Of a stretch of 64,000 bases of DNA, positions 4,724 through 31,130 are shown one piece after another. The translations under genes were made by a program, and so were the position numbers. The notes beneath the pieces are model-generated. The model had not been told where the DNA came from and did not search any database. It saw nothing but the letters and a program-made list of their open reading frames with translations. Every line of letters begins with the position of its first letter. The first letter of the stretch is position 1. This DNA is from Patescibacteria group bacterium (GTDB taxonomy: Bacteria; Patescibacteriota; Patescibacteriia; JBDRGY01), in NCBI GenBank assembly GCA_043817315.1, contig JBDRGY010000003.1, positions 59,181 to 123,180 on the forward strand, in the 5' to 3' direction.

Positions 4724-5560
4724 ATGACTGACCAGATTCAATATTTAAAGAAAATTTTTCGTCAACATCACCTCCGACCGAGCAAATTACGCGGTCAGAA
4801 TTTTTTAATCAACCCGGATGTGGTAAATGAATTGGTAAAGTTGGCCGAGATAAAATCGGGCGATAGTGTTCTTGAGATAGGGCCAGGCCTGGGTATTTTG
4901 ACCAAAGAGATTTCCCAGAAAGCCAAATCAGTTTGGGCGGTCGAAGTTGATAAAGGACTTGCTTCGGTCTTGCCTAAAATAATGAGTGACTATCCTAATG
5001 TAAAGATTATTCCGGGAGATGCCATGAAGCTGCAGGGCAGTCTGGCCAAAACTCTGCCTGCCAGTTACAAAGTAGTAGCCAACTTGCCATTTTCCATTAC
5101 CTCACACTTCTTGCGTCAATATCTAGAAACTGATAAAAGGCCCACAGACATGACATTGATAGTCCAGAAAGAATTGGGAGACAGAATCTGCGCTCCCCCT
5201 GGTCAGATGAGTTTGATATCTGTGGCTGTACAGTTTTACGGACGGCCGACGATCTGCGAACTAGTTAGTCACCAGAATTTCTGGCCCCAACCCAAGGTTG
5301 ACACAGCTATTATGAGAATTGACCAGATCGGTCAAGGCTATAGTGCCAAGATTTACCAGTCAGAAATTCAAAGATTCTGGCAGATAGTTAGAATTGGTTT
5401 TTCAGCTAGGCGTAAACAATTGAAAAATAACCTCAAAGCTGGATTAAAAATTGATAGTGCTCAAATTGTAAAAATAATGCATAAAATTGGGCTTAATGAA
5501 CAAATTAGAGCCCAGGATTTGACAATTGATCAATGGCTAAAGTTAGCCAAAGGTTTTTGA
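4724..5560 (+). CDS. rsmA: 16S rRNA (adenine1518/1519-N6)-dimethyltransferase RsmA/KsgA
   Basis: RGQNFLINPDVVNELV ... VLEIGPGLGILT (SAM-binding GxGxG) ... NLPFSITS pattern typical of KsgA. 278 aa. Confidence 0.85.
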   Translation: MTDQIQYLKKIFRQHHLRPSKLRGQNFLINPDVVNELVKLAEIKSGDSVLEIGPGLGILTKEISQKAKSVWAVEVDKGLASVLPKIMSDYPNVKIIPGDAMKLQGSLAKTLPASYKVVANLPFSITSHFLRQYLETDKRPTDMTLIVQKELGDRICAPPGQMSLISVAVQFYGRPTICELVSHQNFWPQPKVDTAIMRIDQIGQGYSAKIYQSEIQRFWQIVRIGFSARRKQLKNNLKAGLKIDSAQIVKIMHKIGLNEQIRAQDLTIDQWLKLAKGF

Positions 5561-5571
5561 GGGTCCCTAAT

Positions 5572-5600
5572 TTGACCAAACCCCAAATATGTGATATAAT
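5572..5600 (+). promoter_or_regulatory. Near-consensus sigma70-type promoter: TTGACC (5572-5577), 17-nt spacer, extended -10 TGaTATAAT (5592-5600)
   Basis: Read directly: TTGACC-N17-TATAAT with TG at -15/-14. Lies 24 nt upstream of the ATG at 5624 that heads a 4-gene co-directional operon. Confidence 0.55.
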
Positions 5601-5623
5601 GGAGACTGATAATTGGTCAAAAA

Positions 5624-6514
5624 ATGGCACAAAATTCCGATAACGAGATTAACGAAGGGATACCCATTGAGTCGGAAGGTTTTAAGGAATTAATAGACCT
5701 GGAAGACGAGCCTTTACCCGAAGATTCATCAGCAGTATCTGAAGATGATGTCGCTTTTATTGGAGGAAATATGTGGGAGGAACCTGAAGAACGGCCAGGC
5801 AGAAGCGGAGGCAGAAACCAAGCAGCCAAACAGACTTCCGAGCCCCTTAAAAAAACCAATAGACCGCTTTGGGTACTATTCAGTGTTGCTTTGCTGGGTA
5901 TGTTCGTATTCTTTTTAGGCTTTTTTGATGTTATCGGTCAAATCAGCCTGCCCTTTATAGGTGATGGATCAGGGGAACTGACCGCCCAGGATGAAGCAGG
6001 CCTGCTTCTAGATCTGCAGGTGATGGACACTGATGAAGATACCCTAACCGATTATGAAGAATTGTATCTCTATAATACGTCTCCCTACCTGTCAGACTCC
6101 GATTCAGACGGCAAAGATGACGCCACCGAACTGAATGATGGTACCGATCCTAATTGTCCCAAAGGTCAGCTTTGCGGAACCACCTCGACAAATACCAACA
6201 GTTCAACTAATACCAATACCAACGAAAGTTCCTCGGAAGAAACAGTAACGGCTGATCAGTTAAGACAGACTCTAATAGAAAGCGGAGCGCCCGAAAGCAC
6301 AGTTAACGCGATGGATGATGAGACTATCATCCAAACTTACGCCAACCAGACCAGCACCCAGGACATCACAGTTGGCAGTTTAGAAAACTTAGCGGCAGAG
6401 GACGTCCGTCTGCTATTAAGACAGGCCGGAGTGGCTGATGCCACCTTGACTGAAATGGATGACGCTACTCTACTACTGGTTTTTCAAGAAGCCCTTAATG
6501 AAATTAATCAATAA
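5624..6514 (+). CDS. Acidic membrane-anchored hypothetical protein with a D-rich Ca-binding-like motif and internal repeats
   Basis: 296 aa, strongly acidic. One TM (RPLWVLFSVALLGMFVFFLGFF). DTDEDTLTDYEELYLYNTSPYLSDSDSDGKDD resembles thrombospondin-type-3/Ca-binding D-x-D-x-DG repeats. Repeated [TA]MDD[EA]T[IL] units near the C-terminus. TN/ST low-complexity tract. Confidence 0.5.
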   Translation: MAQNSDNEINEGIPIESEGFKELIDLEDEPLPEDSSAVSEDDVAFIGGNMWEEPEERPGRSGGRNQAAKQTSEPLKKTNRPLWVLFSVALLGMFVFFLGFFDVIGQISLPFIGDGSGELTAQDEAGLLLDLQVMDTDEDTLTDYEELYLYNTSPYLSDSDSDGKDDATELNDGTDPNCPKGQLCGTTSTNTNSSTNTNTNESSSEETVTADQLRQTLIESGAPESTVNAMDDETIIQTYANQTSTQDITVGSLENLAAEDVRLLLRQAGVADATLTEMDDATLLLVFQEALNEINQ

Positions 6515-6528
6515 TTTTCCTTAATATC

Positions 6529-9500
6529 ATGGGCATAAAACATAGTCTGAAAACAAAAATGAAAAAGGCACTGGCCTTCATTGCTTTATTCGGATTAGTA
6601 GTCCAAATAGCCGGGCCAGTTCTTTTATATCCGGAAATTGCTCATGCCGGTTTACCTACTTTTGCTACGGTGATTGCCGAGCCCTTCCGGCAGATGATTG
6701 ATGCTGTCAAATATGCCATTCAAATTGCCGGTGATGTCATGTTTAAAAATGCCCTGCGCACTTTTACTGCCAAGATTGCCTACGATACGGCTGTTTGGAT
6801 TGGCAGCGGGGGCAAAGGGCAGAAACCTTTATTTGTAACCAAGCCGGGACGGTATTTGGCAGATGCTGCCGATTCCGCAGCCGGTGATTTCTTAGATCAG
6901 TTATCAACTGCAGCTTGGGGGGAAAGCCTTTGTGATATAGCCCCTGAGCTCAAATTTTCTATTTACGAATCTATTAAGATCCAATATAGCTTGGATGAAA
7001 AAGCCATTCGCAAGGCCAGCTGTACAGCATCTGATATCTGGAAAAATGTGCAGGGCACCCAACTAATCGCTGAAATGGAGGATATGTTTGAGCTGGAACA
7101 AAGCTCCCTGGGACAATTGATTGAAATCGGTTTACAGGCTCCTGAAGAAGCAGCTAAAGGCAGAGAGCAAAAACAACATGAATACGAATTTGGCGGAGGC
7201 TATTTGCCCACTATGACCTTTTCCGGAATCGTCAAAACCCCCTCGGTTTCTTTGTCAGCTATGGTGGATCGATCACTGGACTTAATTACCAAGTCTGAAG
7301 AGCAATACACAGGCAATGCGGTGGCCGATGCCATCGGAGTTTTCTTTAATACTTTGATCAAAACCTGGATAAAAACTTTATTTGATGAAGGGCTCAATCC
7401 CAATGTTCAAGAAGGTGTGGGGCAGAAGCCCAAATCAGGCGTTTTAGCCGCTCGGGAAAAATTCTTTTCCTTAGCTGTTCCCAAATTTTCCACCGGGGGA
7501 CCAGTAGATATTCTAAACGAGTTAGCGGCCTGTCCCAGTGATGCCCGTTATCGCACAACTAATAATTGTGTCATTGACGACAGATTTCGGTTGGCCGTGG
7601 AACAAAAAATGAGAGTCAAAGATGCGGTGGCCCAAGGTCTTTTAGACGAGTATAAAATATTTGGCTATGACGCGGCAGGTCAGCAACCGGATTTCCGCAA
7701 TGGCTATCCCTATAATACAATGGTGGTTTTGAGAAAGTATCGAATTTTACCGGTAGGCTGGGAATTAGCAGCCAAATACATCAGGGACAAAGAAGACCCC
7801 CGGCAACTGCACACCCTAAAAGATGTACTGGAAGCTTACGATGACTGTCCGGTTTGTGATGAGAACAGCGAAAACGTCGGTGATTTATGTGACGATAACG
7901 ATGATTGTATTGATGGCCCTACTGCTCCTGGCCTTTGTGATTTTACCTTGGATTCTCCGTTATGTGGTTTAGTAGATCCGGCCTGGGTATTAAAAGCCCC
8001 ACAAGTAACTTGTAACCGACAGGGTCCTGGAGAACAGATAGTACATGAAGATTGGGAGAGAATTGTAGACGTCAATAACGACGGTGAAATCAATCAAGAA
8101 GACCCACCGGTTCAGATGGTAACCAGGGCCAACTATTGTGCTGATGACCAAACTTGTATCAAGGAAAACGATGACGGATCCTGTGCTCAATATGGTTATT
8201 GCTACGAAGAGAAAGAAATTTGGAAAATCGACGGAAACGGTTGTCCAGAACAGTACGGTAGCTGTTTAGGTTTTAAAAACTCCAACAACAAATCAGTTGC
8301 CTATTTGACTGACACCTTGGATTTTGATCACTGTGACGAAAACAACGTGGGCTGTAAATGGTATTGTCAGGACTGGGACGACACTACTGCCGGCTATCAA
8401 TGCAATAATTATCCCATTAATCCCTTGGATGCTGATTCACCGGGACCGGATGGTGATCCTGCTACCTTAGACGATAACAATCAAATACAATGCACCAACC
8501 CGGACGGCTGTACCTGCTATACCGAAGACAACCTGGCTGACCCCGTTCTTGATGAAGCCGGTGATTCTTGTGTCATTGCTGACGGGGAGTGGTCATGTAC
8601 CCCCAAGTGCGTCTTGCCTTATGAATGTCAATTGGCAGAATGCCTCTGTGTTAGCTGGAGCGGTGATTATTGTAACGTGGCTCCGGGTGGAACCGAGTGT
8701 GACTTGGGAGGACAACCTTGCACTCTAAATAATTCCAAACTGACTATCGATAGTGATGCGGAAACATGTAAAGCCAAAGATACCGGCTGTAGCGAATATA
8801 TCAGAATAGTAGAGGGGACAAATTTACTATCCAATTCATCTTTCGAAATATTTACTGGCGATGCCAATGACGGTGCTGAAGACACTTTTGACGCTTGGGT
8901 TAAGAAACCAGGATCTACCTTCGTAACCTACGCCCAGGTTAATCCTTACTTGGGAAATCACACTTTAGTAATAGAAGGAGGGGCCGCCAATGATTATTTG
9001 GCTCACTACTTTGAGACTGCCACACCCATCGAAAACAGGTCATTTACTTTTTCCTATTATGCCAAGACCGATAACTCGGGCTGCAGCGGCGCTTACGGTA
9101 TAGACGGAGATCAAGCGGCAGGCGGCGGGGCAACGGCCAATTACACAACTAATTGGGAAAGATATCATTATACTCATAATTTCACCAAACATTGTTTGGA
9201 TGCGGGACACGCTCTTTGTTCCACTGATGCTGATTGTGCTGCCGGAGTTTCCTGCGGTGGTGACACCAGCATCCAGCCTTTTGTGCGCCCAGCTCCCGGT
9301 TGTAAACTTTACGTGGATGCGGCTCAAGTGGAAGTTGGTTTTGTCCCCACTGAATATAAAGAGTACAACACCGTCAATCAGCTATATCTCAACGAGAATA
9401 GAGTGGCTTGTTTATCCGAAGAAGCCAACTGTAATTTATATACTCCCCGAAGAGGCGGCGATTCTGTCCCGGCGGTAATTACGGAAGCGGGTTCATGTGA

Positions 9501-12500
9501 CACCTCTTCTATCGACTGTGACCAGTGTGATGAAGACCAGGTAGGCTGTCGCGCTTTTAGAGAACAACCGCTTGAAGCCAATGCTCCTGATAAAGAACAC
9601 GCTTGGCGTACCGGAAATCACTGTTCCGATGATATGTCAATTTCTTGTGCCACTGATGCCGAATGTGTAGCAGCCAGCGCCGGAATCTGTATACCGGAAG
9701 TGGACTTTATTATGGATAGTGGCAAAGAATGCCCGGCTCGCTACGTTGGCTGCGAAGAATACACCAATTTGGACATAGTAGCCCAGGGTGGTGAAGGAAA
9801 AGAATATTATACTTATCTTAGGTTGTGTGCTGAACCGGGCAATGCCGGATGTACCACCTATTATACTTGGGAAGGTTCAGCTACCGCCGGATACCAAATC
9901 AAGATTCACTCCTTAATAGAAGGAGGAGATGGTGGTCCTTGCACCCAGATAGATTATGGAGCAGCTCCGGAGACTATCCAATGTGCCGGATTTGATATTT
10001 GTGATCCCGGAATAGATGGAGCTGATTGTCGTGAATACTATGATGCGGCCGGTATTGTCTATTACCGTATGGAAAGAGATACCATCACCTGTTCTGATGA
10101 CTGTCATCCCATGAGAAACACTATCGACGACCGCATCTACCCGGCCGTACCCAGTGAAAATGAAGAATGTTCTTCTAGCTATAAAGGTTGTAGAGAGTAT
10201 AAAGGATCAACCGGCTCCAATGTCAGGTTGGTAATGGATCATGATTTTGAAGAGGGCAATGTGGGAGAATGGAATGGCCAGATCAGTTCAGAAGCGATAA
10301 CTGCTGGCGGACATTCTCTATATACATCAGGGGCTATTAGCAACAGCATGGATGTCAATAATAACCTGACTTATATTTTATCTTTCTGGGCCAAAGGTAG
10401 TGGCACTACCCTCAATCCGATTACTATAGGAACTGTTCAATTTGACCTGGAACCAGGCGAGATTGCCCTGAATGATGAATGGCACAACTATACAGTGGGA
10501 CCGTTGGTCTATGGAGATGATTCCGATGTGGTAAATTTGACCATCAGTGGTTCAGGCAATTTCTTCATTGATAACATTGTGTTACAAGAAGTGGGGGCCA
10601 GCCTCTATCTGATCAAGGATTCATATGATATCTGCGACCAGGTAAATTGTGACGAATACTATGACCTGCAGAAGGATAAACATTTTCTTAAATCATTCAC
10701 TAGATTGTGTCGCGAAGAAGCTATCGGCTGTGAAGCCCTGATCGATACCCAGAATTCTTCGGACAACCCCTTTGCCGAAACCTTCTTTACTGGTACCGAA
10801 GATGAACTGACCGTGGCTGGTGATTTGACTAGGACCTTAGTCAACAACAAAAAACATTACTGCAAGCCCGATGCTAAGGGTTGTAGCCGATTGGGAGCTC
10901 CTACCAAGGAACAAGATCAATCGGTATCGGGTTTCGAATCGACTTTTCTAAAAAATGACCCCGATAAATATGACGATATCTTGTGTCGTACCAGAGAAGT
11001 CGGTTGTGATGCCTTTGATATCGAAGATAATGATTCTATCCTCTACTTTAAAGACCCGGGTAGACGAGTCTGTACCTGGCAGGAGGGAGTCAATGTCGGT
11101 AGCGGTCAACTAGTCTCCGGTTGGTTCAGATTTGGAACCACTGAGGCCTGTAATCCTGATGCCGATATCTATGACACTCGAGATGATGATTTTAACAACG
11201 ATTTTGTAGCAGGTGATACTAATGACCTATGTCAGTATCGGGTATTGGGAGAATGTATCGGCACCGATGATCCTTGTAACAATGATACTGATTGTGGTGG
11301 TGTTGACTCTTGTGTTGATATCAAGAGACGCTGGTGTCTCAAATCAAGCCCGGCCGGCGAGTGCCACCCCTGTTATGCCAAAACTTGCCCCAAGGACGAA
11401 AGTACCTGTACTGAATACCGTGATCCTTTATCCAAAGCAATCAGTGTAAATATTCCCGAAGTCAACGCCTTAGATTGTGAGGTGCATTGTCCCATTCAGT
11501 ACGATGGCATGGGAGAACCACTACTGGTTGATGCCGATTGTATCACAGTCGGCTATGCGGGCGGAGGCCGACCTGGCTGTCAGCCTTATCACTATCTATC
11601 AAACAGTGTTGATAAAGAATCCTGCAATAGCATCATTAATCCGGACGACAGTTGTGTGGCTTTTGCCGAGATGCGTAATCTCTATGAAGATATCAACCCG
11701 GAAGGAACTACTTCGCCTTTTGCCCCAGCTGCCTGTAACGGCTGTTCTATTAATCGTCAGGGAGTGGGCAATACGGATAATGAATTGGCAGAAATATGCT
11801 CTGACAATGAAGACTGTTGCGCCAACGTACCGTTTAATCCGGGCGACAACGTAGATTTAGGGGCTTGCCGGGCCAATACTATATTGAAAGTAGCTCCGGA
11901 TCGGGAATGTAATAAATGGGCGTACTGTCGCACCAGTTGGACTATAAATATGCCCAACGGTGATAAGGAAAAAATGTGTTTTGAGATAGGAGCCTGTAAT
12001 AAAGTAGATGCCAGTGGAGAATGTGTCAACACTTTGGACTTGGGAGTTTGCTCTGGTGATCCTACTCAAACGTGTACCCAGGATTATGATTGTAATATTG
12101 GAGAAACCTGTGTTATTAATGAGATTACAGTTGATTCTCCGGGGGAAATAGAAACTATCCAAAATCTATCAGGCCTGGCCGTAGCCGGAGCCAGCTGGAA
12201 ACCGGATGGCAGTGTAGTAGTGCCCGGTTATTATGCCTATGCCGGCATGAAAGAAGTGGGCCTGGGTATTGACCTGATTAACGGCGATATGGAAGAAGGG
12301 GAAACTGATCCCTGGACGCCGGTGGGTGATACCTCTTCATTAGAACTAGAAACTTCTAATCCCCAGGACTATACTCTGAAAGTGTCAGCTTCCGAAGAAA
12401 ACCACGGCACCGCTTACAGTCTAAACGGTTGGGTGTCAGAGGGTGATAAAGTATTTATAAATTTCTGGGCCAAAGCCGGTGAAGGTGCCTCATCTATTAG

Positions 12501-15500
12501 AGTAACCATAGGGGTTAACGGAAATATTGAGGCTCATAGTGAACTAATAACCCTATCTTCCAGTTGGAAAGAATATTCAGTTTATTTCGAAAATATTAAT
12601 TGTGGTGGTGGTTCTTGTGGTACAGCCTATCTTAACTTCATATTACCTAATTCACCCGGCAATCTAGTTTCTTTCTATATCAACGACGTCTCCTTACAGA
12701 CTGTCCTTGAAAAACACAGTGACTGGGAAGCTTCCTATCCTAATGATGAAGATGTGCCCAGTTATCAACAGCAAGATCCTCAATTTGTGGCTCGTTCTTG
12801 CAGAATGTATCCAAGGGAAGATTCTTTACAATGCAGCTATTTTGACAGAGCCAACGCCCGTTCCTATAACGGCTGGAAAGGCTATTGTGTAGAAAAAGAT
12901 CCTCGAAATTCCAATTATTGTCTGCAGTGGTGGCCGGTGGATATCATCCAGGGTGAATCTGATATCTTTGGTACGGAACAGATGGCCGGCTATTTCGGCC
13001 GCACCCCGCTTTACTACTGTCTGCAAATGGGTGTTTACGAATTACACCGTTCTTTTTACAAAACCTTAACCTGTAAATACTGCAAGGAGAAATGTCCCAG
13101 TGGCTACACCAAGAGAACAATAGGAGGTGGTGATAACTGCACTTGCTGTTGGCATTGCGGTCAGATAGCCGGTGATCGTAAAAAGGTGTACTGCGATCCG
13201 GTAGGCGGCGATCACTGGGAGATTTACGACGGTGATATTCTTTACGACAAAGATAACAAGCAGGTAGAAATTATTGCTAAGAAATGTGAAGTGGTAGCCA
13301 AGGTGGTGGGAGTTAGAGGAGAAAATATGGCCTGGGCCGAACGCACTAAATATGGTTCTGATTATACGGTGGTGCCGGATATCGGCTCAACCATCGGTAC
13401 CGACAGGGACCCCTTTGGCTCTTTAGTGCCCCCGGCTAATCAAGAGGATTATCCGGACGGCTGGTCTGGCTCCCCCCCAGAATTTACAGGCTCGGCTAAT
13501 GTGCCGGAACCCCAACCTTTATTTGTGATTCCGGACACCCAGGCCAATTATGAGTCCCTGGCCAGGGCTGGTAAGCCGATGTGTTGCTATGACAATCCGG
13601 GTTGTGGCAGTTCCAATGCCAGGATCAATACCCCTGAATATACCAGGAATGAAAAAATCAACACTACACCATCAGGCGGCAAAGAAAGACTAAAGAGGAT
13701 CTTTGCCAAAGGAATGAGTGCCTGGGTCTGGAATGAACCGAGATGTGAAGAGGGATCTGACCTCTTTCAGTGTACTAATCAAACGGATCCTGGCGTACCA
13801 ATCCAGGGAATCAGTGATATAGACGGCCAGGGTTGTGAGAATGATGCCGGCAATCAAGATGACAATCTATGTTTATTTGAAGCGGGTAGTTGTTCCTCAA
13901 AGATATGTATTATTCCCGGGGTGGATGAAAGCAAGATAGGTTCTTATGATGATGACGGCACTCCTTATATGCACGGCCGTTCCTGCGGTTGTCCGGCTGG
14001 TGAAGGTTTTTGTGAAGTAGTGCAACAATGTAATGATCCGGCAGAAGCTGATTATCTCTTCCCTTGTGGTGATGAAGTCTGTTCGGGAGAGGATATTTGC
14101 GTCCAGTCAATGTGTACCGGGGATAATTTGCATCCGGGCTGGGAAGGAACTTATAACTGTGAAGTCCAAAACAACTGTCCGGACGGTGCTTTCTGTAATA
14201 CAAATAAATCTTGTCAGAGTTACGAACAAACCTGTACTTGCCCCGATGGAGATTGCAATCTGCAATCAGATGTATGCACTAACCATCCCACTATCACTTG
14301 TGATGAAGATGCTGACTGTTGTACCGTGGCTGACGGGGTAGAGTGTACCGGCAGTTGGTGTAATCTCAATAATTCTTGGTGGTGCTCGGCTAATTCCGAC
14401 TGTTCTTATTGTGAAGCTACCGGAGAGCTGTGTATTACTGCGGAACAGATTACCGCCTGTGCTGATGCCGGCAGCTCCTGCCTCAATGATGTCTGTAATG
14501 ATTTATGCGGTCCTAACACTCAATATTTTTGCAGTAATAATCCTACTTTAATATGTGACCCGGACGGACAATGTGACCCGGACTGGGGCTGTGATGCCGC
14601 TAGTCGTTGCGTCAAAGTGGATGAAACTTGTGATTGCCCGGCTGATGCTGATGATTATACAGCCAATGATGTTGCCTACTGTGCCTCCACCAACGCAGCC
14701 GGAGATGAAAATTTCTGTCTCCAGGGACAAGAAGCTTGTGGTTGCCTGGGCGGGCCGGCTGATTGTGAAGCCATTGAAAGATGCTCAGTACCGACCGATG
14801 ACGGACCGGACGGTATCCCAGACACTTATGACGATACTCACACTTCGCCCTGTACCGGTGGTGAAGACCTGTGCTGGGAAGATGCCGGAGCTTGTTATGA
14901 CGGAGTATGTTCAGCCGGGGGCAAGCCTTGTGATGACGCTAACCCTTGTGAGGCGGATGAAGGCTATTGTGTCCAGTACATGTGTGTAGTGGATTACGCA
15001 GTATCCAACACAGCCTGGCAAAAAGGCGGAGTCAATTATATGCAGGCTTGCAGTAGTAGCAATCAGTGTGCTGGAGCTCAAGCTTCTTGCCAGAATTTTG
15101 ATGGTGCCTGCTATTTCCCCTATGATGCACCAGAAGACGGTTCGGTCTGTTTTGAAGACGAAGATTGTTTTTCGACGGCTGCTGTGGCCGGTGGCGAATA
15201 TGGAACCTGTAATGCCAAATACTGTTCGGCTGGAGCCTGGGGCCGTTGTGGCGGTGGAGGTCGGTCCTGCAATCAAGGTGATGAATGTGATGATGGTGTG
15301 GGGGGAACATTATGTGTCAAGAAATTATATAGCTCATGTAATGATGCTGAAGATTGTGGCACTCCACCCTTTGGTGTCTGTCGGGGCACCTGCTCTTTTA
15401 CCGGTTGGACTTGCAGAACCAGCTGTTTCCCCTTTGGGGGAAGTTGCAATAACCCGCACTGCATCGGTGGTCCCAATAACAATGAATCTTGTGGCTCCGA

Positions 15501-16017
15501 TATGGATTGTCGGGGAGATGAGGCCTCATCAACCGCTGGTTATGTGTCGGCTGATTCCCACCTGTCGGTTTGGGATCAGGATTTTGAAGACATGCCGGTT
15601 TGCAATCCTGGTGACCGACAGACTTATGATCCCAGCGATGATGCTTTGGATTACTGCTATTATCCTCCTCTAGTTTCCAATGTCAAAGCTAATGGTAGTA
15701 CTCACGAAGATATTACCATTAACGGATCCGGTCCGATTATTCTGACCTTTAACTCTTCGGTCAATGCCGAACAACTGCCCCTGAGACTGGTTATTGTCGA
15801 TTTTGGTGACGGCTATGTTTTCCGCCGTCGCTTTACTCCGGGAGTACAACCCCATGATGATCCCAGCAATCCCCATGTAATTTCTCACCGCTATGAGTAT
15901 AACGGCACTCCCACTGATTACACTATTAAGGTGACTATCAGCGATAACTGGCAAAAAACCAATGATCCCAATCATCCCAACTCACAATACGCTGGGACAA
16001 TCACGGTTGGACCCTAA
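6529..16017 (+). CDS. Giant (3162 aa) secreted/anchored cysteine-rich surface protein with three CBM4/9-like carbohydrate-binding-type modules and a PKD-like C-terminal domain
   Basis: N-terminal hydrophobic signal/anchor. Several hundred Cys in recurring CxxC / C-x-D-x-x-D-C spacing. Three modules starting N/S-x-F-E / DMEEGET ... W and ending Y/I-[ID]-[ND]-[IV]-[VS]-LQ (aa ~760-900, ~1230-1360, ~1910-2060) resemble CBM_4_9. C-terminus has PKD-like VDFGDGY. Uninterrupted 9.5-kb ORF. Confidence 0.7.
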   Translation: MGIKHSLKTKMKKALAFIALFGLVVQIAGPVLLYPEIAHAGLPTFATVIAEPFRQMIDAVKYAIQIAGDVMFKNALRTFTAKIAYDTAVWIGSGGKGQKPLFVTKPGRYLADAADSAAGDFLDQLSTAAWGESLCDIAPELKFSIYESIKIQYSLDEKAIRKASCTASDIWKNVQGTQLIAEMEDMFELEQSSLGQLIEIGLQAPEEAAKGREQKQHEYEFGGGYLPTMTFSGIVKTPSVSLSAMVDRSLDLITKSEEQYTGNAVADAIGVFFNTLIKTWIKTLFDEGLNPNVQEGVGQKPKSGVLAAREKFFSLAVPKFSTGGPVDILNELAACPSDARYRTTNNCVIDDRFRLAVEQKMRVKDAVAQGLLDEYKIFGYDAAGQQPDFRNGYPYNTMVVLRKYRILPVGWELAAKYIRDKEDPRQLHTLKDVLEAYDDCPVCDENSENVGDLCDDNDDCIDGPTAPGLCDFTLDSPLCGLVDPAWVLKAPQVTCNRQGPGEQIVHEDWERIVDVNNDGEINQEDPPVQMVTRANYCADDQTCIKENDDGSCAQYGYCYEEKEIWKIDGNGCPEQYGSCLGFKNSNNKSVAYLTDTLDFDHCDENNVGCKWYCQDWDDTTAGYQCNNYPINPLDADSPGPDGDPATLDDNNQIQCTNPDGCTCYTEDNLADPVLDEAGDSCVIADGEWSCTPKCVLPYECQLAECLCVSWSGDYCNVAPGGTECDLGGQPCTLNNSKLTIDSDAETCKAKDTGCSEYIRIVEGTNLLSNSSFEIFTGDANDGAEDTFDAWVKKPGSTFVTYAQVNPYLGNHTLVIEGGAANDYLAHYFETATPIENRSFTFSYYAKTDNSGCSGAYGIDGDQAAGGGATANYTTNWERYHYTHNFTKHCLDAGHALCSTDADCAAGVSCGGDTSIQPFVRPAPGCKLYVDAAQVEVGFVPTEYKEYNTVNQLYLNENRVACLSEEANCNLYTPRRGGDSVPAVITEAGSCDTSSIDCDQCDEDQVGCRAFREQPLEANAPDKEHAWRTGNHCSDDMSISCATDAECVAASAGICIPEVDFIMDSGKECPARYVGCEEYTNLDIVAQGGEGKEYYTYLRLCAEPGNAGCTTYYTWEGSATAGYQIKIHSLIEGGDGGPCTQIDYGAAPETIQCAGFDICDPGIDGADCREYYDAAGIVYYRMERDTITCSDDCHPMRNTIDDRIYPAVPSENEECSSSYKGCREYKGSTGSNVRLVMDHDFEEGNVGEWNGQISSEAITAGGHSLYTSGAISNSMDVNNNLTYILSFWAKGSGTTLNPITIGTVQFDLEPGEIALNDEWHNYTVGPLVYGDDSDVVNLTISGSGNFFIDNIVLQEVGASLYLIKDSYDICDQVNCDEYYDLQKDKHFLKSFTRLCREEAIGCEALIDTQNSSDNPFAETFFTGTEDELTVAGDLTRTLVNNKKHYCKPDAKGCSRLGAPTKEQDQSVSGFESTFLKNDPDKYDDILCRTREVGCDAFDIEDNDSILYFKDPGRRVCTWQEGVNVGSGQLVSGWFRFGTTEACNPDADIYDTRDDDFNNDFVAGDTNDLCQYRVLGECIGTDDPCNNDTDCGGVDSCVDIKRRWCLKSSPAGECHPCYAKTCPKDESTCTEYRDPLSKAISVNIPEVNALDCEVHCPIQYDGMGEPLLVDADCITVGYAGGGRPGCQPYHYLSNSVDKESCNSIINPDDSCVAFAEMRNLYEDINPEGTTSPFAPAACNGCSINRQGVGNTDNELAEICSDNEDCCANVPFNPGDNVDLGACRANTILKVAPDRECNKWAYCRTSWTINMPNGDKEKMCFEIGACNKVDASGECVNTLDLGVCSGDPTQTCTQDYDCNIGETCVINEITVDSPGEIETIQNLSGLAVAGASWKPDGSVVVPGYYAYAGMKEVGLGIDLINGDMEEGETDPWTPVGDTSSLELETSNPQDYTLKVSASEENHGTAYSLNGWVSEGDKVFINFWAKAGEGASSIRVTIGVNGNIEAHSELITLSSSWKEYSVYFENINCGGGSCGTAYLNFILPNSPGNLVSFYINDVSLQTVLEKHSDWEASYPNDEDVPSYQQQDPQFVARSCRMYPREDSLQCSYFDRANARSYNGWKGYCVEKDPRNSNYCLQWWPVDIIQGESDIFGTEQMAGYFGRTPLYYCLQMGVYELHRSFYKTLTCKYCKEKCPSGYTKRTIGGGDNCTCCWHCGQIAGDRKKVYCDPVGGDHWEIYDGDILYDKDNKQVEIIAKKCEVVAKVVGVRGENMAWAERTKYGSDYTVVPDIGSTIGTDRDPFGSLVPPANQEDYPDGWSGSPPEFTGSANVPEPQPLFVIPDTQANYESLARAGKPMCCYDNPGCGSSNARINTPEYTRNEKINTTPSGGKERLKRIFAKGMSAWVWNEPRCEEGSDLFQCTNQTDPGVPIQGISDIDGQGCENDAGNQDDNLCLFEAGSCSSKICIIPGVDESKIGSYDDDGTPYMHGRSCGCPAGEGFCEVVQQCNDPAEADYLFPCGDEVCSGEDICVQSMCTGDNLHPGWEGTYNCEVQNNCPDGAFCNTNKSCQSYEQTCTCPDGDCNLQSDVCTNHPTITCDEDADCCTVADGVECTGSWCNLNNSWWCSANSDCSYCEATGELCITAEQITACADAGSSCLNDVCNDLCGPNTQYFCSNNPTLICDPDGQCDPDWGCDAASRCVKVDETCDCPADADDYTANDVAYCASTNAAGDENFCLQGQEACGCLGGPADCEAIERCSVPTDDGPDGIPDTYDDTHTSPCTGGEDLCWEDAGACYDGVCSAGGKPCDDANPCEADEGYCVQYMCVVDYAVSNTAWQKGGVNYMQACSSSNQCAGAQASCQNFDGACYFPYDAPEDGSVCFEDEDCFSTAAVAGGEYGTCNAKYCSAGAWGRCGGGGRSCNQGDECDDGVGGTLCVKKLYSSCNDAEDCGTPPFGVCRGTCSFTGWTCRTSCFPFGGSCNNPHCIGGPNNNESCGSDMDCRGDEASSTAGYVSADSHLSVWDQDFEDMPVCNPGDRQTYDPSDDALDYCYYPPLVSNVKANGSTHEDITINGSGPIILTFNSSVNAEQLPLRLVIVDFGDGYVFRRRFTPGVQPHDDPSNPHVISHRYEYNGTPTDYTIKVTISDNWQKTNDPNHPNSQYAGTITVGP

Positions 16018-16049
16018 TATTTAGTCGCTAAAAAACAAAAATATAAAGA

Positions 16050-18860
16050 ATGACTCACTTGTTTCGGATAACTGAATTAATTAAAAATTCCCGCAAAGTC
16101 CAACTGGGCGCGGTTATGGTTTTTATTATCGTATTTATTGCCCTGATGATGCCCCAGCAGGCTAATGCTTCCGTTGGCAGTCAAGCGCTAAATATCCTGG
16201 GCAATATTATTGCCGGTTTGATGTGGCCCATTATCTGGCTGTTCGGCAACATGACTCGTCTGATGATCTTTTTGCTGATTCAGGTAGCTAAGTACAATGA
16301 CTTTGCAAATTCTACTGCGGTCAACATAGGTTGGTATCTGGTCAGAGATATTGCCAACCTCTTTTTCGTTATTGTCCTTCTAATCATTGCTGTCAGCACG
16401 GTCTTGGGTATTCAGTCTTGGAGTTATCGCAGCCTTTTGGGCAAGTTCATCCTGATGGTGATTTTGATAAATTTTTCCAAGCTGATCGCTTTATTTTTTA
16501 TAGACTTGAGTCAGGTAATAATGCTTACCTTTGTAGAGGCTTTTGAAGACACCATGGCCAACAATATCTTCGCGGCCGGAGGCTTCAATAAGCTGCTGCA
16601 TATGGGTACCCGTGAAGTTGGTGAATCCCAGGGTCTATCTATAGCAGCTGTATTGGGGTCGACTATTTTAGCCACTATCATGGTAGTGGTTATGTTTATC
16701 GTGCTAACGGCCATGACCATCATGCTGTTAATCAGAATTATTATGCTCTGGCTTTTGATCATCATTTCCCCCCTGGCCTACATGACAGCTACCATCCCGA
16801 CCAGCAAGAAATTTAGCAGCCAATGGTGGGGTATGTTCGGGCAATATCTGATGATCGGTCCGGTTATGGCTTTTTTCATCTGGTTGTCTATGATGCTGAT
16901 TGCCCAGACTCAAGGAGCGCCGTCTACGGAGATATTGGATGCGGGAGTAGCAGAGGAGTCGGTCTTGGGTGAACAACCAGAGGTCTATGGAGCCATTACC
17001 GAGATTTCCGAATCTGGTAATTTTTTAAGCTATGGCATGGCCATTATTTTGCTAACTACTTCTATGATATTTGCCCAGCAATCTGGGGTAATGGGATCCG
17101 GTATTGCCGGCAAGGCGCTGGGAGCGATCCAAAAAACTACCATGGCTCCTTTCAAAACAGCCGGTGGCATAATCAAATACGGACATAATAAGTTATATGG
17201 AAAAACCGGTGTACAACTTAATCCTATGGCTCTGGTACGCGGTGTCCAAGACACATTGAAAAAAAGAGAGAGGGATGATTTGGTTAAAGGTGCTGGAAAG
17301 GCCGGTGCAAGACTGGAAAGAGGGGGGCTGCCAGGCGTCATCGGCGGGTTTTTCGGGGCTGGCCGGGATGCTGCTGAAGCCCATGTCAGTGGTTTTTTGG
17401 GTATTAAAGGAATAGTGAGAGCAGTAAGGGTGGCGCGGCACGCTGCCCCGAGAGTTGCTAAAGTACGTGAGGGTCTGGAGGCAAAACAGGCAGTCATAAC
17501 CCAGAATAGTGATGATTTGGGCGCAAATTATGGAAAGGCTTTTGACAGCACTCATGCCGAAAGACAAACAATGTGGGATAGACATGATGACTTGGAAAGA
17601 GAATACCCGCAACTGGAGCAAAATGTAAGAGATGCTGAAGCTGCTTTTGCAGCGGCTGAAGCCACGGGTACCGATAAAGAAATACAAAAAGCCAGTGATA
17701 AGCTTGATGAAGCCGAGGCCGACGAATCTGCCAATAAGGCAGAGAGGAAGGGTTTAGCTGAATCCGCCGGGCCCAGAGATTTACTGAATCAGGATGAAGA
17801 GCTGGTTAAGAAAGAAGTGGAAACCCGTAAAGGTGTATTAAGAACATTGAATCAAGAGGCCAATAAGGTTCAATCCTATTTGGATAGAATACAACCACCC
17901 AGAGCTTTCTACGCTACTCGGGAAAGGCGGATGCTGGAAGAAGAAGAGGCTGGTAAGATTGACTCAACCAACGAAGATGAGCTGATCCAGATGTTTAGGA
18001 ATGCCCATGCTAATGGTGACATGGTCCAGGCGGCAGCCATTTTTCGTCAAGCTACCAAGGCTGGCCATTTTAATGAAATTATTAATCACGGAGCCAGGGC
18101 AAGGAAAGATTGGTGGCTGGACAAACATGGTGGCACCACTGACAAGAAAGCTGATGGAGTAAAACAGATTGTCTGGCAAGGTGGATTATTTCCCAGTTCA
18201 GCTGGCGGCCCCAATGCCTTTTTCCGGGATGTGATGCAAGGTCAGATGAAAATGGGAGAACAGCATGCCCTATCTTTACAAAACGACTTGAGTAGTTATG
18301 CCGAAGCCATAGGACATTGGGGAGTTGCAGGGCAAATGATTGGTGCCAAGGATGGTAAACTATTCCAGCGGACGGAACCGGATCGTTTGAAACGGTGTGA
18401 TGGTGAATCCGGTAAGAAAGATACTGAAGGCTTGATGCGTCATTCCAGCCGCTTACTGCTGGGGGGTGAAACAGTCGATCCTTTCGATCCCTCAAAAAGA
18501 GAACATACTTTATCACCACTGGGTGTCTCTATTCTAAAGCGTACCATTGTCAGTACCTTGAGTAACTTGCCGCGCGGCCGGTTTAACGAAAACCAAGCGG
18601 CTGCTTTGGTTACCCCCCGCAACCTCAAAATTATGAGAGAGGTTGCCGCAACAATTCCTGATAGTGACGTTTTAAAGTATAATGGTAGACGACGCAAAAC
18701 CAAAGAACTATTAGAAGAAATGATCAGGGGCATTCAGCGATATGCTGCCACTTCTCTGGACAAATCTGGCGAGGAGATGGACGATTTAATAGAATCCATA
18801 GATGGTTTGAAAGACGCATTACCCACAAATATTTCAACACCACCAAAAGCAAAAGCATGA
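16050..18860 (+). CDS. VirB6/TrbL-like polytopic membrane protein with a ~550-aa charged/coiled-coil C-terminal extension
   Basis: 936 aa. N-terminal signal-like segment then ~7 TM helices within the first ~380 aa, as in TrbL/VirB6. The remaining sequence is hydrophilic and K/E/A/R-rich. Immediately downstream of the giant protein, with 4-nt ATGA overlap into the next ORF. Confidence 0.5.
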   Translation: MTHLFRITELIKNSRKVQLGAVMVFIIVFIALMMPQQANASVGSQALNILGNIIAGLMWPIIWLFGNMTRLMIFLLIQVAKYNDFANSTAVNIGWYLVRDIANLFFVIVLLIIAVSTVLGIQSWSYRSLLGKFILMVILINFSKLIALFFIDLSQVIMLTFVEAFEDTMANNIFAAGGFNKLLHMGTREVGESQGLSIAAVLGSTILATIMVVVMFIVLTAMTIMLLIRIIMLWLLIIISPLAYMTATIPTSKKFSSQWWGMFGQYLMIGPVMAFFIWLSMMLIAQTQGAPSTEILDAGVAEESVLGEQPEVYGAITEISESGNFLSYGMAIILLTTSMIFAQQSGVMGSGIAGKALGAIQKTTMAPFKTAGGIIKYGHNKLYGKTGVQLNPMALVRGVQDTLKKRERDDLVKGAGKAGARLERGGLPGVIGGFFGAGRDAAEAHVSGFLGIKGIVRAVRVARHAAPRVAKVREGLEAKQAVITQNSDDLGANYGKAFDSTHAERQTMWDRHDDLEREYPQLEQNVRDAEAAFAAAEATGTDKEIQKASDKLDEAEADESANKAERKGLAESAGPRDLLNQDEELVKKEVETRKGVLRTLNQEANKVQSYLDRIQPPRAFYATRERRMLEEEEAGKIDSTNEDELIQMFRNAHANGDMVQAAAIFRQATKAGHFNEIINHGARARKDWWLDKHGGTTDKKADGVKQIVWQGGLFPSSAGGPNAFFRDVMQGQMKMGEQHALSLQNDLSSYAEAIGHWGVAGQMIGAKDGKLFQRTEPDRLKRCDGESGKKDTEGLMRHSSRLLLGGETVDPFDPSKREHTLSPLGVSILKRTIVSTLSNLPRGRFNENQAAALVTPRNLKIMREVAATIPDSDVLKYNGRRRKTKELLEEMIRGIQRYAATSLDKSGEEMDDLIESIDGLKDALPTNISTPPKAKA

Positions 18861-20203
18861 CAAAATTAGAAGAATTTACCAAAAGATTATCCAACCCGGC
18901 CACTTTGCCTGTACTGGAAAAAGCGGTCAATAAGTTCATTTTATTTGCTCAGAGAAAGGAAGCTTTTGAAGTATATCGAACAGTATCCGCATTTTTTGCT
19001 CACTCTGATTTCAGCCAGAAATACCCTAAGTTGTACGACCAATACAGGGAGCAGTTAGTTGTAGCCGAATTCGCAGCTCTTTCTTTGCTGTCGGATCAAG
19101 AAGTAATCCAGCTGTTTCGTGAAAAAGCCCGTCAGGCCTTTACTATTGACCTGTATGATGTTAGGGAAGAGCTAAAGATAAAATTGTTGTCAATCTGGGT
19201 ACCAAAAAGAGATGAGTTAAAAAGGAAAATCAAGAAGGCGTTAGTGGAAAACACCCAGAATATCAGTCAGCAGCCGATTCAGTTACACGATAAGCCGGTT
19301 AAGCCAACTATCGGTAATTGGATATTAAGCTATAACGAGGTTCTAGGCACGGAGATAGCGGAAAAAATAAAGTTGAGCAAATACTTTACGGACAATCCAA
19401 ATTTTAAGAATCTAGTTGAAGATGAAAAGAAAATAGTTAAGAATATCCTGGATTTCTACGAACAACTAAAACACAAATCTCTTTCTCTGGAGGGCTTGGA
19501 GGAGGATGTGCCGGTTGATGACGAGGGCCGGGAAGGAGTGATTAAACAAGGAGTATTTGAAAAATTTGATGCTAAGGCCAATGCTGAAGAGTTGACCATG
19601 TATCAAGAGATAATTGACCGAGTAGTAGCTGAAGAAGAAGCAGCGAAGTCCGGAAAAAGAGAGGAGACTCCGGCCAAGACAGTTCCCAGTCCGCAACCAA
19701 AAGATAAAAAAATACAACAAGCCTATAAAGGTGATCAGACAGAAGAAAAAGCAATTGACGATTTGATGCAGCAGCTGGCCGGACAAAAAGCCACTGAAGT
19801 ATTATTTAAGTCTATTAACAGTAAAGATAAAAAAAGAGTAATCGCTGTTTTGCGCTTACTGGCCCAAGAAAGGCAATTGGAAAAGATTATCACTGTAGGC
19901 GGTCAGCTTAGTGCTATGTTTGAAGGATACATGCAGGCCAAATTCGGTCCCGAAATAGTAACTCAATTCAAACAGAATCCCAACAAACCGGTTTACGTTT
20001 ACAGTTTCTTACAGTATATCTTACAGGATAAACTGGGTTTAAGTTCTTCGGAATCAGCCAGGCAAGCTATTCATCTGGCTAATATATATTCAGCCAAGGG
20101 CAACGACCAATACCTAAAGATGGCTTATGCCGATGAGCAATCGGGTGAGTTTAATTGGGCAGAGGTAGTTAAGGGGAATAAGGGGTTGGAAGTAAAGAGG
20201 TAA
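18857..20203 (+). CDS. Hypothetical cytoplasmic protein (448 aa), translationally coupled to the VirB6-like gene
   Basis: Start ATG overlaps stop of 16050..18860 (ATGA). No TM and no recognisable motifs. Charged and helical. Confidence 0.45.
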   Translation: MTKLEEFTKRLSNPATLPVLEKAVNKFILFAQRKEAFEVYRTVSAFFAHSDFSQKYPKLYDQYREQLVVAEFAALSLLSDQEVIQLFREKARQAFTIDLYDVREELKIKLLSIWVPKRDELKRKIKKALVENTQNISQQPIQLHDKPVKPTIGNWILSYNEVLGTEIAEKIKLSKYFTDNPNFKNLVEDEKKIVKNILDFYEQLKHKSLSLEGLEEDVPVDDEGREGVIKQGVFEKFDAKANAEELTMYQEIIDRVVAEEEAAKSGKREETPAKTVPSPQPKDKKIQQAYKGDQTEEKAIDDLMQQLAGQKATEVLFKSINSKDKKRVIAVLRLLAQERQLEKIITVGGQLSAMFEGYMQAKFGPEIVTQFKQNPNKPVYVYSFLQYILQDKLGLSSSESARQAIHLANIYSAKGNDQYLKMAYADEQSGEFNWAEVVKGNKGLEVKR

Positions 20204-20210
20204 CGAGTAA

Positions 20211-20226
20211 CGGGTGACGGGTAATG
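20211..20226. repeat. Left arm of imperfect inverted repeat (cgggtgacgggtaatg) flanking the four-helix-bundle gene
   Basis: Reverse complement of 20660..20675 (cattactcgtcactcg) gives cgagtgacgagtaatg, a 14/16 match. Confidence 0.5.
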
Positions 20227-20265
20227 AGATGCAAAGACGGGGATTGATGAATAACCAACAGGGAG

Positions 20266-20655: not shown

Positions 20656-20659
20656 TACC

Positions 20660-20675
20660 CATTACTCGTCACTCG
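20660..20675. repeat. Right arm of inverted repeat flanking the four-helix-bundle gene
   Basis: Pairs with 20211..20226. Begins 5 nt after the TAA stop. Confidence 0.5.
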
Positions 20676-20684
20676 TATCCCATT

Positions 20685-20706
20685 GCTCCGAGCTCGGCCT
20701 TTTTTT
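20685..20706 (+). terminator. Putative intrinsic terminator (self-complementary CCGAGCTCGG followed by T7)
   Basis: gctCCGAGCTCGGcc then ttttttt at 20700-20706. Confidence 0.4.
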
Positions 20707-20734
20707 ATTTACCTTTTTTAGTTAGAATAAGGGT

Positions 20735-23004: not shown

Positions 23005-24279
23005 ATGGAGGACACTTTCAAAGTTAAAGATAAAATCCCCGTCAGAAAAGAAGACGGCACCTTTTCTATATTGGAAAGTAACGGAACTGAAGAAGTAGTT
23101 CAAAAACCAGAAATGCCCCAACCAGCTCCGCCACCACCACCTCCTCCACCTAGGCCTCAATCCCAACCTCCAGCTCCTCCCATTACAGATAGACCAGTGG
23201 AATCGCCTCCACCACCTCCGTCTAAACCCCCACAACCCAGACCGGTTCCTCCACTCCAGCCGACTATAGAAGAAAAGCCGGTTTATAAGCCACCGATTAG
23301 AGAAGACCAGAAATCAGACGTTAATGGTTCAGCTGACTTTCAATTTAGCAAAGATGACGCGGAAGAAGTGAGGGGTCATGAGGAAAAATTAAAGAGTTTC
23401 GGATCAGCCGATTTTGTCACCGACGGAGAACGGGTAACCACGGAAATTGTATCTGCCAATAACCTTACCTTTGATGATGAGATATATAGAAAGCGCCTGG
23501 TAGCTATAGTCAATTCCCGACTGAAGGATATCCGTGATTTTCTGGAAACCAAAGATATGCTGTCTCGTCCTATTAAGGTAGGGGGCATGGGCTACGAGCA
23601 AACCTTAACCCAGAAGATTTTAGATACAATCGAAGCGGAAGCTACCAAACTCCACGGTCATCCTTTGGCCAAAGTACATACCAAAAAGAAAGTGGCTCCT
23701 CCTGCTGTAAAGCCGATCCTTCCCAAGGAAATCAGACAGTCCAAACCCAAGGCTCCAGTTCCAGAATCAACCGCCCCCAAGATTGCAGATGCGCCAAAAC
23801 CTATTCAGCCAAAAGTTGTCAGCCAGCCGATACGCCGGACCGTGCCCATGAGGGCACCAACTAAACCAACTGTGATTTCTTCCATACCCCAAGTAAAGAG
23901 GCCTATAGTAGAGGGGGAAAGACCCAAGATTGAGGACATTAAAAAACTACCCAAAGTGATGAGTCCCATCGATGAGATCAGGGAGATGGACTTGGGGGAC
24001 TTCCGGCGCCTGGGAACTGATGCCAGGGGACGTGTTAATAAGCTGATCGAAAAATTAGAAATACTAGAAGAAGAATCATACGCCAAGAAAGCTCAGGGAA
24101 AAGATGCCTGGAAGAAATCAAGGATATATATGTTGTATTTAGAAATTGGTCAGCAAAGCATGGTTCAGGCCAAACCGATAGAAGAAATAGTGGCTGTAAG
24201 GGCCCAGCAGAATCTGCCTACTATCAACTTTGATGAGTTCGAAGCTATCGCTGATTTTAACAAAACATTAAGGTTCTAA
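23005..24279 (+). CDS. Proline-rich hypothetical protein (424 aa)
   Basis: PQPAPPPPPPPPRPQSQPPAPP ... PPPPPSKPPQPRPVPPLQP tract, then a K/P-rich region. No TM. First of a tightly packed co-directional gene string (3-nt gap from the upstream gene). Confidence 0.45.
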   Translation: MEDTFKVKDKIPVRKEDGTFSILESNGTEEVVQKPEMPQPAPPPPPPPPRPQSQPPAPPITDRPVESPPPPPSKPPQPRPVPPLQPTIEEKPVYKPPIREDQKSDVNGSADFQFSKDDAEEVRGHEEKLKSFGSADFVTDGERVTTEIVSANNLTFDDEIYRKRLVAIVNSRLKDIRDFLETKDMLSRPIKVGGMGYEQTLTQKILDTIEAEATKLHGHPLAKVHTKKKVAPPAVKPILPKEIRQSKPKAPVPESTAPKIADAPKPIQPKVVSQPIRRTVPMRAPTKPTVISSIPQVKRPIVEGERPKIEDIKKLPKVMSPIDEIREMDLGDFRRLGTDARGRVNKLIEKLEILEEESYAKKAQGKDAWKKSRIYMLYLEIGQQSMVQAKPIEEIVAVRAQQNLPTINFDEFEAIADFNKTLRF

Positions 24280-31121: not shown

Positions 31122-31130
31122 TAAAATAAT

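Follow-up and report, generated by a model that had tools for sequence, protein, structure and literature searches.

A giant cysteine-rich secreted protein encoded next to a VirB6-like protein in the type IV secretion system locus of a Patescibacteria bacterium

Introduction

What is a gene for a cysteine-rich secreted protein of 3162 amino acids (aa) doing directly upstream of a gene for a VirB6-like protein in a Patescibacteria genome? The question is raised by a 64,000-nt stretch of a Patescibacteria metagenome-assembled genome (contig JBDRGY010000003.1), here called the window; all coordinates are window positions. Between the promoter at 5572 and position 20203 it carries a module of four genes, encoding the membrane protein p296, the giant secreted protein (the giant), an extended VirB6/TrbL-like protein and the soluble protein p448. 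The region is best explained as the upstream half of a type IV secretion system (T4SS) locus carried on the chromosome of a Patescibacteria (Candidate Phyla Radiation, CPR) bacterium. With confidence that stands no higher and no lower than even, we read the giant as a Sec-exported, T4SS-associated adhesin for host glycans and not as a substrate of the T4SS.

Patescibacteria T4SSs have been described as comprising VirB4, TrsD, PrgI, VirB6 and arrays of VirB2-like pilins, with no relaxase (PMC12102498, PMC10633639, PMC11665869, PMC12857230). Southlakia epibionticum, the one Saccharibacterium tested, requires the system in order to grow as an epibiont, and in reviews the function is described as "completely unknown" (PMC10633639, PMC11665869). 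These systems have no known VirB5 homologue, and a 2025 survey using profiles of known components detected no adhesins and does not mention the giant (PMC12102498). In our literature search, which covers not all journals, no publication connected a giant Cys-rich protein with the T4SS of Patescibacteria.

The four-gene module

The module and the signals at its upstream edge are as follows.

5534..5549, + strand: terminator-like hairpin with T-run, overlapping the ksgA 3′ end just upstream of the promoter (consensus scan only)
5572..5600, + strand: sigma-70-type promoter TTGACC-N17-(TG)nTATAAT with extended −10, heading the module (consensus scan)
5624..6514, + strand: p296, single-pass membrane protein of 296 aa, transmembrane (TM) segment at aa 82–100
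6529..16017, + strand: giant secreted protein, 3162 aa, 203 Cys (6.4%)
16050..18860, + strand: extended VirB6/TrbL-like protein, 936 aa, polytopic over aa 1 to ~350, with a 546-aa charged, essentially Cys-free tail
18857..20203, + strand: p448, soluble, Cys-free, conserved protein of 448 aa

The original prediction, made from the sequence without database searches, had placed a near-perfect extended promoter ahead of four tightly spaced co-directional genes, and both statements hold. The open reading frames (ORFs) are separated by 14 nt (p296/giant) and 32 nt (giant/VirB6-like), and the VirB6-like and p448 genes overlap by 4 nt (ATGA). The promoter scores 11/12 and is the best + strand site within 4000–22500. 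At most one mismatch to TTGACA-N14-TGnTATAAT is found at three sites in 64 kb versus 0.06 expected, all of them intergenic and ahead of genes, so the match is more than chance. Five distant relatives have an extended −10 (TGnTATAAT) at the ksgA/p296 junction as well, and in one of them the promoter there is a perfect TTGACA-17-TATAAT. Spacing and promoter together suggest that the p296, giant, VirB6-like and p448 genes are co-transcribed.

Architecture of the giant

The giant can be divided into the following parts.

6529..6648, + strand: Sec-type signal peptide (giant aa 1–40) with K-rich n-region, hydrophobic core and predicted cleavage between AHA and G (direct reading and hydropathy)
6649..8328, + strand: conserved N-terminal region (aa 41–600), the most conserved part of the giant
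8821..9357, + strand: CBM_4_9-like beta-sandwich module 1 (aa 765–943); Pfam CBM_4_9 at aa 765–878, E 0.028, 15.2 bits
10228..10584, + strand: CBM_4_9-like module 2 (aa 1234–1352); Pfam CBM_4_9 at aa 1234–1298, E 1.8e-4, 22.4 bits
12277..12699, + strand: CBM_4_9 module 3 (aa 1917–2057); Pfam CBM_4_9 at aa 1917–2021, E 2.2e-14, 54.4 bits
13126..15528, + strand: most Cys-dense region (aa 2200–3000), up to 16 Cys per 100 aa, lineage-specific
15646..16014, + strand: conserved C-terminal domain with the PKD-like signature FN..V..EQ.PL...VDFGDG...H.Y...I.V.DNW (alignment)

Three carbohydrate-binding module (CBM)-like inserts had been proposed. With a Pfam cut-off of 25.9 bits for CBM_4_9 (PF02018), module 3 lies above the threshold, and modules 1 and 2 lie below it. 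All three segments are Cys-poor and align with one another and with CBM_4_9. Module 3 also shows a weak sequence match to the xylanase CBM 4xun_A in the PDB, and module 1 matches the NCBIfam family GTA_spike_fiber (E 1.8e-10, above its cut-off). CBM_4_9 modules prove to be a trait of the family, being found in 11 of 16 full-length relatives.

The "Cys-dense repeats" of the original prediction are borne out in their cysteine content, with 203 Cys in the giant, and not as sequence repeats: self-BLAST finds no internal repeats in the Cys-rich regions, even at E ≤ 10. For the proposed PKD-like C-terminus, the motif VDFGDG is present at aa 3090, and in the family alignment a WGDG...H.Y...DNWG signature resembling PKD is conserved within the last ~120 aa. 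A profile of this domain gives a marginal match (E 0.084) to the solved chain 4xed_A, which we take to be a PKD domain. Pfam PKD and PKD_4 do not match the C-terminus of the window protein at E ≤ 1, and PKD_4 matches only 2 of the 26 aligned homologue C-terminal segments. In one of these 26 proteins (L075) the C-terminus is extended by a long additional stretch that bears a separate FGD...H.Y...D.GG signature, and this extension may account for such a match. We therefore use the term PKD-like and do not assign the domain to PKD.

Hydropathy gives no TM segment in the giant besides the signal peptide, and no catalytic domain was detected in Pfam or NCBIfam when it was scanned whole or as ten overlapping segments at E ≤ 1. 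An AlphaFold2 model of the N-terminal 640 aa, built with 33 homologues, reaches a pLDDT (predicted local distance difference test) score of 62, with aa 340–450 above 90. The N-terminal region found no PDB match, either by Foldseek with this low-confidence model or by profile search.

Constraint and variation in the giant family

The closest homologue (L081, 3254 aa) aligns with the giant from end to end at 46% identity. Between the two, 189 of 203 Cys (93%) are conserved versus 46% of the other residues, which is the pattern expected of structural disulfides. Locus proteins predicted to be cytoplasmic or membrane-embedded contain about 0% Cys, compared with 6.4% in the giant and 3.8–4.7% in two pilin-domain proteins encoded further downstream. 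Conservation of the giant is highest in the N-terminal 600 aa and lowest in the third CBM-like module and in aa 2200–3162. Residues 2200–3000 are matched in only 1–6 of 50 related loci and show 29–46% identity to the closest homologue.

When protein clusters built at 50% identity were searched with a profile of the N-terminal region, 3,296 representatives matched at E ≤ 1e-3 and 1,259 at E ≤ 1e-30. Proteins of the top 150 clusters are mostly 2,400–3,300 aa long, and the match is always N-terminal. The 137 long members have a median length of 2,700 aa and a Cys content of 2.9–5.2%, and the DNWG motif is found near the C-terminus of 119. As a rule, family members start with a signal peptide that has an AXA site, and those named at the source are all "hypothetical" except one "NHL repeat-containing". 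No catalytic domain was detected in the 16 full-length relatives.

Two near-identical contig pairs diverge abruptly inside the giant gene (L122 10500–11589 versus L123, and L101 5000–5779 versus L100), and one contig of each pair ends in the divergent stretch. One near-identical pair is 100% identical over 10.5 kb and then diverges by ~20% from giant aa 1309 onward, with all 17 Cys of the divergent stretch kept. As it continues up to the end of one contig, the divergence may stem from two strains having been joined in assembly; in either case the second allele is real sequence. These pairs suggest that assemblies are broken by allelic differences in the giant between strains. The idea that a diversity-generating retroelement acts on the giant, prompted by a weakly bAvd-like 23S rRNA IVP protein encoded nearby, was rejected, because no ORF of reverse-transcriptase size with such a match occurs in the window and because the divergence spans ~1 kb at ~20% rather than a short adenine-specific patch.

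The extended VirB6-like protein

The description of the third product as a ~7-TM protein with a charged tail of ~550 aa proved accurate. Hydropathy gives six strong TM segments within aa 17–285, and the structural model adds a helix at aa 322–348, so that 6–7 TM helices lie within aa 17–348; the tail of 546 aa is 31% charged and nearly Cys-free. The start codon is uncertain, as the 100% identical NCBI entry, a hypothetical protein, has 914 aa, 22 residues fewer than the 936-aa ORF. Among 112 homologues of 800–1,600 aa, the polytopic N-terminal ~380 aa are strongly conserved and the tails are unrelated.

Profile searches show sub-threshold similarity to VirB6/TrbL in some relatives and none in the window protein itself. 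The latter has no match to Pfam TrbL at E ≤ 0.1 and none in NCBIfam; TrbL (PF04610) matches 6 of 41 homologues at E ≤ 0.1, all of them sub-threshold (best E 1.8e-4), and TrbL_3 (PF19590) is on record as a weak match for the closest homologue (48% identity). A direct PDB sequence search with the protein and with the family profile returned only matches of the low-complexity tail. With an AlphaFold2 model of aa 1–410 (pLDDT 78), the top seven Foldseek matches are all chains of R388 TrwJ/VirB5–TrwI/VirB6 stalk entries, including 7o3v and 8rt9 (probability 0.89–1.0, with modest E-values and TM-scores). Because of this fold match to R388 TrwI/VirB6 and the T4SS neighbours, together with the sub-threshold TrbL matches, we assign the protein to the VirB6 class. 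In its predicted structure it combines a VirB6-class polytopic fold with a long charged tail, and this tail fits the "extended VirB6" type (PMC12857230).

Gene order across relatives

Gene order was compared in two sets: 80 loci anchored on the VirB6-like gene, out of more than 510 relatives from species-representative genomes, and 80 metagenome loci anchored on the giant. In the first set a giant homologue lies upstream on the same strand in 49 of the 57 loci with at least 9 kb available upstream, directly adjacent in 22. There p448 follows downstream in 34/43 loci and VirB4 lies within 10 kb in 38/43. Read from the giant, the VirB6-like gene comes next in 27 of the 28 loci with at least 2.5 kb available beyond it, p296 precedes the giant in 50/53, and ksgA precedes p296 in 46/53. 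The suggestion that a giant beside a TrbL-like gene is a lineage trait is thus confirmed, with the pairing repeated in hundreds of related genomes, and the order ksgA, p296, giant, VirB6-like, p448 is near-universal in the lineage.

The module had also been described as lying apart from the VirB3/VirB4/pilin cluster. This is true of the window, where PrgI starts 4.1 kb downstream of p448, but not of most relatives, in which the two are contiguous. Many genomes (for example L014, L019, L047, L070 and L080) keep the unbroken order p296, giant, VirB6-like, p448, p424, PrgI, TrsD, VirB4, p214, pilins. This contiguity places the module within the T4SS locus rather than beside it.

Six loci carry an extra Cys-poor ORF of ~300–400 aa which ends 4–15 nt before the VirB6-like gene; the window has none. 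Many contigs with this Patescibacteria module (L001, L009, L014 and others) are publicly titled "uncultured Gammaproteobacteria bacterium", which looks like a labelling error.

Role of the giant and alternative explanations

Sec signal peptides with AXA sites and about 200 disulfide-like conserved Cys point to Sec export and oxidative folding outside the cell, and they do not fit unfolded transfer from the cytoplasm through a T4SS. We hypothesize the following course. The giant would be exported by Sec and would fold outside the cell into a long stalk with ~100 disulfides, while its N-terminal region would stay at the cell surface near the VirB6 channel, with the putative Ca-binding ectodomain of p296 or the VirB6 loops as candidate partners. 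The lectin-like modules and the variable Cys-rich distal part would bind polysaccharide of the host envelope, and the T4SS with its VirB2-like pilus would thereby be held against the host. The giant would act as adhesin, in the way that PrgB and other surface proteins do in Gram-positive conjugation, and would not itself be moved through the T4SS; its functional link to the T4SS is suggested by synteny.

More tentatively, with the balance tipping somewhat against it, we speculate that the giant is the missing host-recognising part of the T4SS, lying outside the cell. Its N-terminal 600 aa would dock on the extended VirB6 protein and/or the p296 ectodomain, the stalk would project the three lectin modules, and variation of the fast-evolving Cys-rich tip would set which host surface is engaged. 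If this is true, the giant would belong to a new class of accessory T4SS proteins that occurs in more than a thousand lineages. The family is a testable candidate for coupling the T4SS to the host surface and for setting host range.

Several observations weigh against a T4SS-associated adhesin. What ties the giant to the T4SS is gene order, and ksgA shows equal synteny with the giant (46/53). Inheritance of genome structure can therefore be enough to give a conserved order. Eight of the 57 VirB6-like loci have no giant within 10 kb, and the essential T4SS locus of Southlakia (SEML1_0006–0019) has no gene of the giant's size, which means that the giant is not a universal T4SS component. The case for co-transcription consists of spacing and a promoter motif. 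Two of the three CBM-like modules are sub-threshold in Pfam, and the N-terminal model, at pLDDT 62, shows no similarity to VirB5, PrgB or any solved structure. The giant also has neither an LPXTG motif nor a C-terminal TM segment or anchor, and its retention at the surface is unaccounted for if the signal peptide is cleaved. Sortase anchoring was considered and rejected, as the LPXTG motif is missing.

The main rival explanation, which we regard as rather unlikely, is that the giant and p296 form an autonomous surface structure, either a general adhesin or an envelope component resembling an S-layer, which works independently of the T4SS and owes its position to inherited gene order. It draws on the linkage of ksgA, an unrelated housekeeping gene, which is as tight as that of the VirB6-like gene (46/53 versus 27/28); yet a promoter and a terminator-like hairpin part ksgA from p296, the promoter position is kept in relatives, and the spacings within the module are only 14, 32 and −4 nt. 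About half of the loci have 0.45–2.4 kb or an additional ORF between the giant and the VirB6-like gene, but the latter is still found downstream in 27/28 loci across homologues that are only 25–40% identical. An autonomous structure would also agree with the existence of T4SS loci without a nearby giant, the Southlakia locus having none, with large Cys-rich extracellular CPR proteins that have no T4SS link (PMC4736985), and with a second giant-protein operon (Kelch repeats) in the window that contains no T4SS genes.

The original prediction had instead cast the giant as the substrate or tip of the VirB6-like channel. A tip subunit would be extruded through the channel and placed as VirB5 is on VirB6, and this proposal now appears improbable. 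The giant gene does adjoin the VirB6-like gene, VirB6 of R388 is the base on which VirB5 assembles (7o3v, 8rt9), and the giant is most conserved at its N-terminus; moreover, the Patescibacteria T4SS has no known VirB5 homologue (PMC12102498). Against this stand the classical Sec signal peptides of the giant and its relatives and the ~200 conserved, disulfide-like Cys, which imply folding outside the cytoplasm. At 3162 aa the protein far exceeds any known VirB5, and its N-terminal region, in a poor model, has no fold or sequence similarity to VirB5; no similarity to a tip protein was found either. Pertussis toxin is a Sec-exported protein which later assembles onto a T4SS channel. A Sec-exported giant that later assembled onto the channel would be a point at which the substrate or tip proposal overlaps with our explanation of the giant as a T4SS-associated adhesin.

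A secreted polysaccharide- or cell-wall-degrading enzyme, targeted by its CBMs to the host envelope for nutrients, is the least probable explanation: CBM_4_9 modules usually accompany glycoside hydrolases, the best-matching PDB sequence is that of a xylanase CBM and Patescibacteria depend on host-derived nutrients (PMC11665869), but no catalytic domain appears in the giant, whole or as ten segments at E ≤ 1, or in its 16 full-length relatives, although the scans would leave room for a new catalytic fold in its large unassigned regions.

p296 and p448

The first product of the module had been described as an acidic membrane protein with a Ca motif, and p296 matches this description: it has one TM segment, 60 D+E versus 13 K+R and the motif DxDxDGxxD. 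Its N-terminus is acidic, and positive residues precede the TM segment. The ectodomain contains two TSP3-like Ca motifs (DTDEDTLTDYEE...DSDSDGKDD...DPNCP), hinting at putative Ca binding. The annotation as TSP3 stands on the motif, found by eye and regular expression, and is not matched in Pfam. The double motif DTDxDGLSDYDE...DSDSDG...DPNCP is present in 69–70 of 70 homologues and is the main conserved feature of the family. No match to p296 or p448 was found in Pfam, NCBIfam or the PDB, and a profile of p448 has no detectable relatives in Pfam or the PDB either. Together with the N-terminal region of the giant, p296 and p448 define three unannotated families which could be added to T4SS detection profiles for the phylum.

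The remainder of the T4SS locus and other genes of the window

Upstream of the module lie housekeeping genes for leucyl-tRNA synthetase, two major facilitator superfamily transporters, Sua5 and KsgA, with ksgA ending at 5560. Downstream of it the T4SS locus continues with the following genes.

23005..24279, + strand: p424, Pro-rich and Cys-free, with a conserved C-terminal ~120 aa; lies between p448 and PrgI in relatives
24282..24755, + strand: PrgI/VirB3-like protein (Pfam PrgI, 27.5 bits versus a cut-off of 27)
24730..25437, + strand: TrsD-like protein resembling the N-terminal part of VirB4 (NCBIfam TrsD E 3.9e-7; VirB4_plasma N-terminal region E 3.7e-10)
25430..27436, + strand: VirB4 ATPase (NCBIfam conju_CD1110, NF045971, 360 bits versus a cut-off of 325; Pfam P-loop_TraG)
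27448..28092, + strand: p214, bitopic membrane protein after VirB4, present in 34/80 loci
29586..32246, + strand: two paralogous T4SS_pilin-domain proteins (Pfam T4SS_pilin, E 6e-11 and 3.7e-11)

VirB4, PrgI and the two T4SS_pilin proteins match above threshold, and the TrsD-like match is sub-threshold; with these components the window locus fits the Patescibacteria T4SS. Both matches of the TrsD-like ORF, to TrsD and to VirB4_plasma, are far below the NCBIfam cut-offs. This ORF (24730–25437) overlaps virB4 (25430–27436) by 8 nt. A frameshift as the origin of the split was rejected, as the separate ORF matches the TrsD component of the Patescibacteria T4SS (PMC12102498). No relaxase or type IV coupling protein was found in Pfam or NCBIfam among the scanned window ORFs, and p424 has no Pfam, NCBIfam or PDB match.

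The two pilin-domain proteins (29586–31121, 511 aa, and 31131–32246, 371 aa) are unusually long and have Cys-rich C-terminal extensions, with an overall Cys content of 4.7% and 3.8%. They are 60% identical overall and their TM segments are identical, which suggests a recent duplication.

Between p448 and p424 a 2.8-kb insertion splits the T4SS locus; it comprises genes for a 23S rRNA IVP protein, phosphoribosyl pyrophosphate (PRPP) synthase (prs) and a stand-alone PPDK_N protein. The gene for the IVP protein, which is weakly bAvd-like (20266–20655), marks the break between the locus halves. IVP genes recur at differing positions in or beside the T4SS module in seven loci of relatives, twice in one of them, suggesting insertion of a mobile or selfish gene. 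The stand-alone PPDK_N (ATP-grasp) protein of 323 aa (22030–23001) is encoded directly upstream of p424, and a PPDK_N gene precedes p424 in at least two relatives too (L027 9260–9511 and L040 17857–18795).

Another operon of very large secreted proteins (47225–63039, + strand) is headed by a promoter of the same extended class (47225–47253). Its products are a 591-aa single-TM protein, Kelch-repeat proteins of 1594 and 2034 aa, a 427-aa protein with 3.3% Cys and a 562-aa single-TM protein. The last contains a DsbA-like domain with the active-site motif CPYS and could be relevant to how disulfides form in the giant. A third strong match to the extended promoter (41963–41991, − strand) lies just upstream of a minus-strand ORF (41502–41948).

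Comparison with known systems

All three modules of the giant share with CBM4/CBM9 (PF02018) the N-terminal F-E-x-G...W and the C-terminal [FY]-I-D-[ND]-[IV], and differ in not being attached to a recognisable glycoside hydrolase. The nearest described counterparts of the whole protein within CPR are large Cys-rich extracellular proteins of Peribacteria, which average ~1,655 aa with ~7% Cys, are encoded in a 14-gene cluster with no T4SS link, and are predicted to be secreted and strain-variable, with a proposed role in attachment (PMC4736985). Compared by description only, the giant is likewise large, Cys-rich and predicted to be secreted.

The extended VirB6 type (PMC12857230) is matched by the layout of the VirB6-like protein, and the tail sequence is unrelated, even among its own close homologues. 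The essential VirB6-like protein of Southlakia has 1088 aa (PMC10633639). From R388 TrwI/VirB6 the window protein differs by the sub-threshold TrbL similarity of its family, its occurrence in a monoderm organism and the lack of a VirB5 partner.

A large secreted surface protein, PrgB has its gene upstream of the VirB6, VirB3 and VirB4 genes of a Gram-positive-type T4SS and has been proposed to hold donor and target cells together. It serves as adhesin for the T4SS of Enterococcus pCF10 (cited in PMC12102498), and the giant would share with it an analogous role only and no family membership. It has no sequence relationship to PrgB and no LPXTG sortase signal, is 2–3 times larger and disulfide-rich, and carries CBM_4_9-type modules, whereas the PrgB adhesin domain is not matched in Pfam or NCBIfam.

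The closest system is the Patescibacteria T4SS itself, which is related to MPF-FATA (PMC12102498). The window shares with it VirB4, a separate TrsD-like protein, PrgI/VirB3, a VirB6-like protein, an array of VirB2-type pilins and a chromosomal location, and differs by the 2.8-kb split with the IVP, PRPP synthase and PPDK_N genes. Published surveys sought known T4SS parts and do not mention the giant, p296 or p448. We therefore describe an apparently unreported accessory module added to the known Patescibacteria T4SS, and not a new kind of machine.

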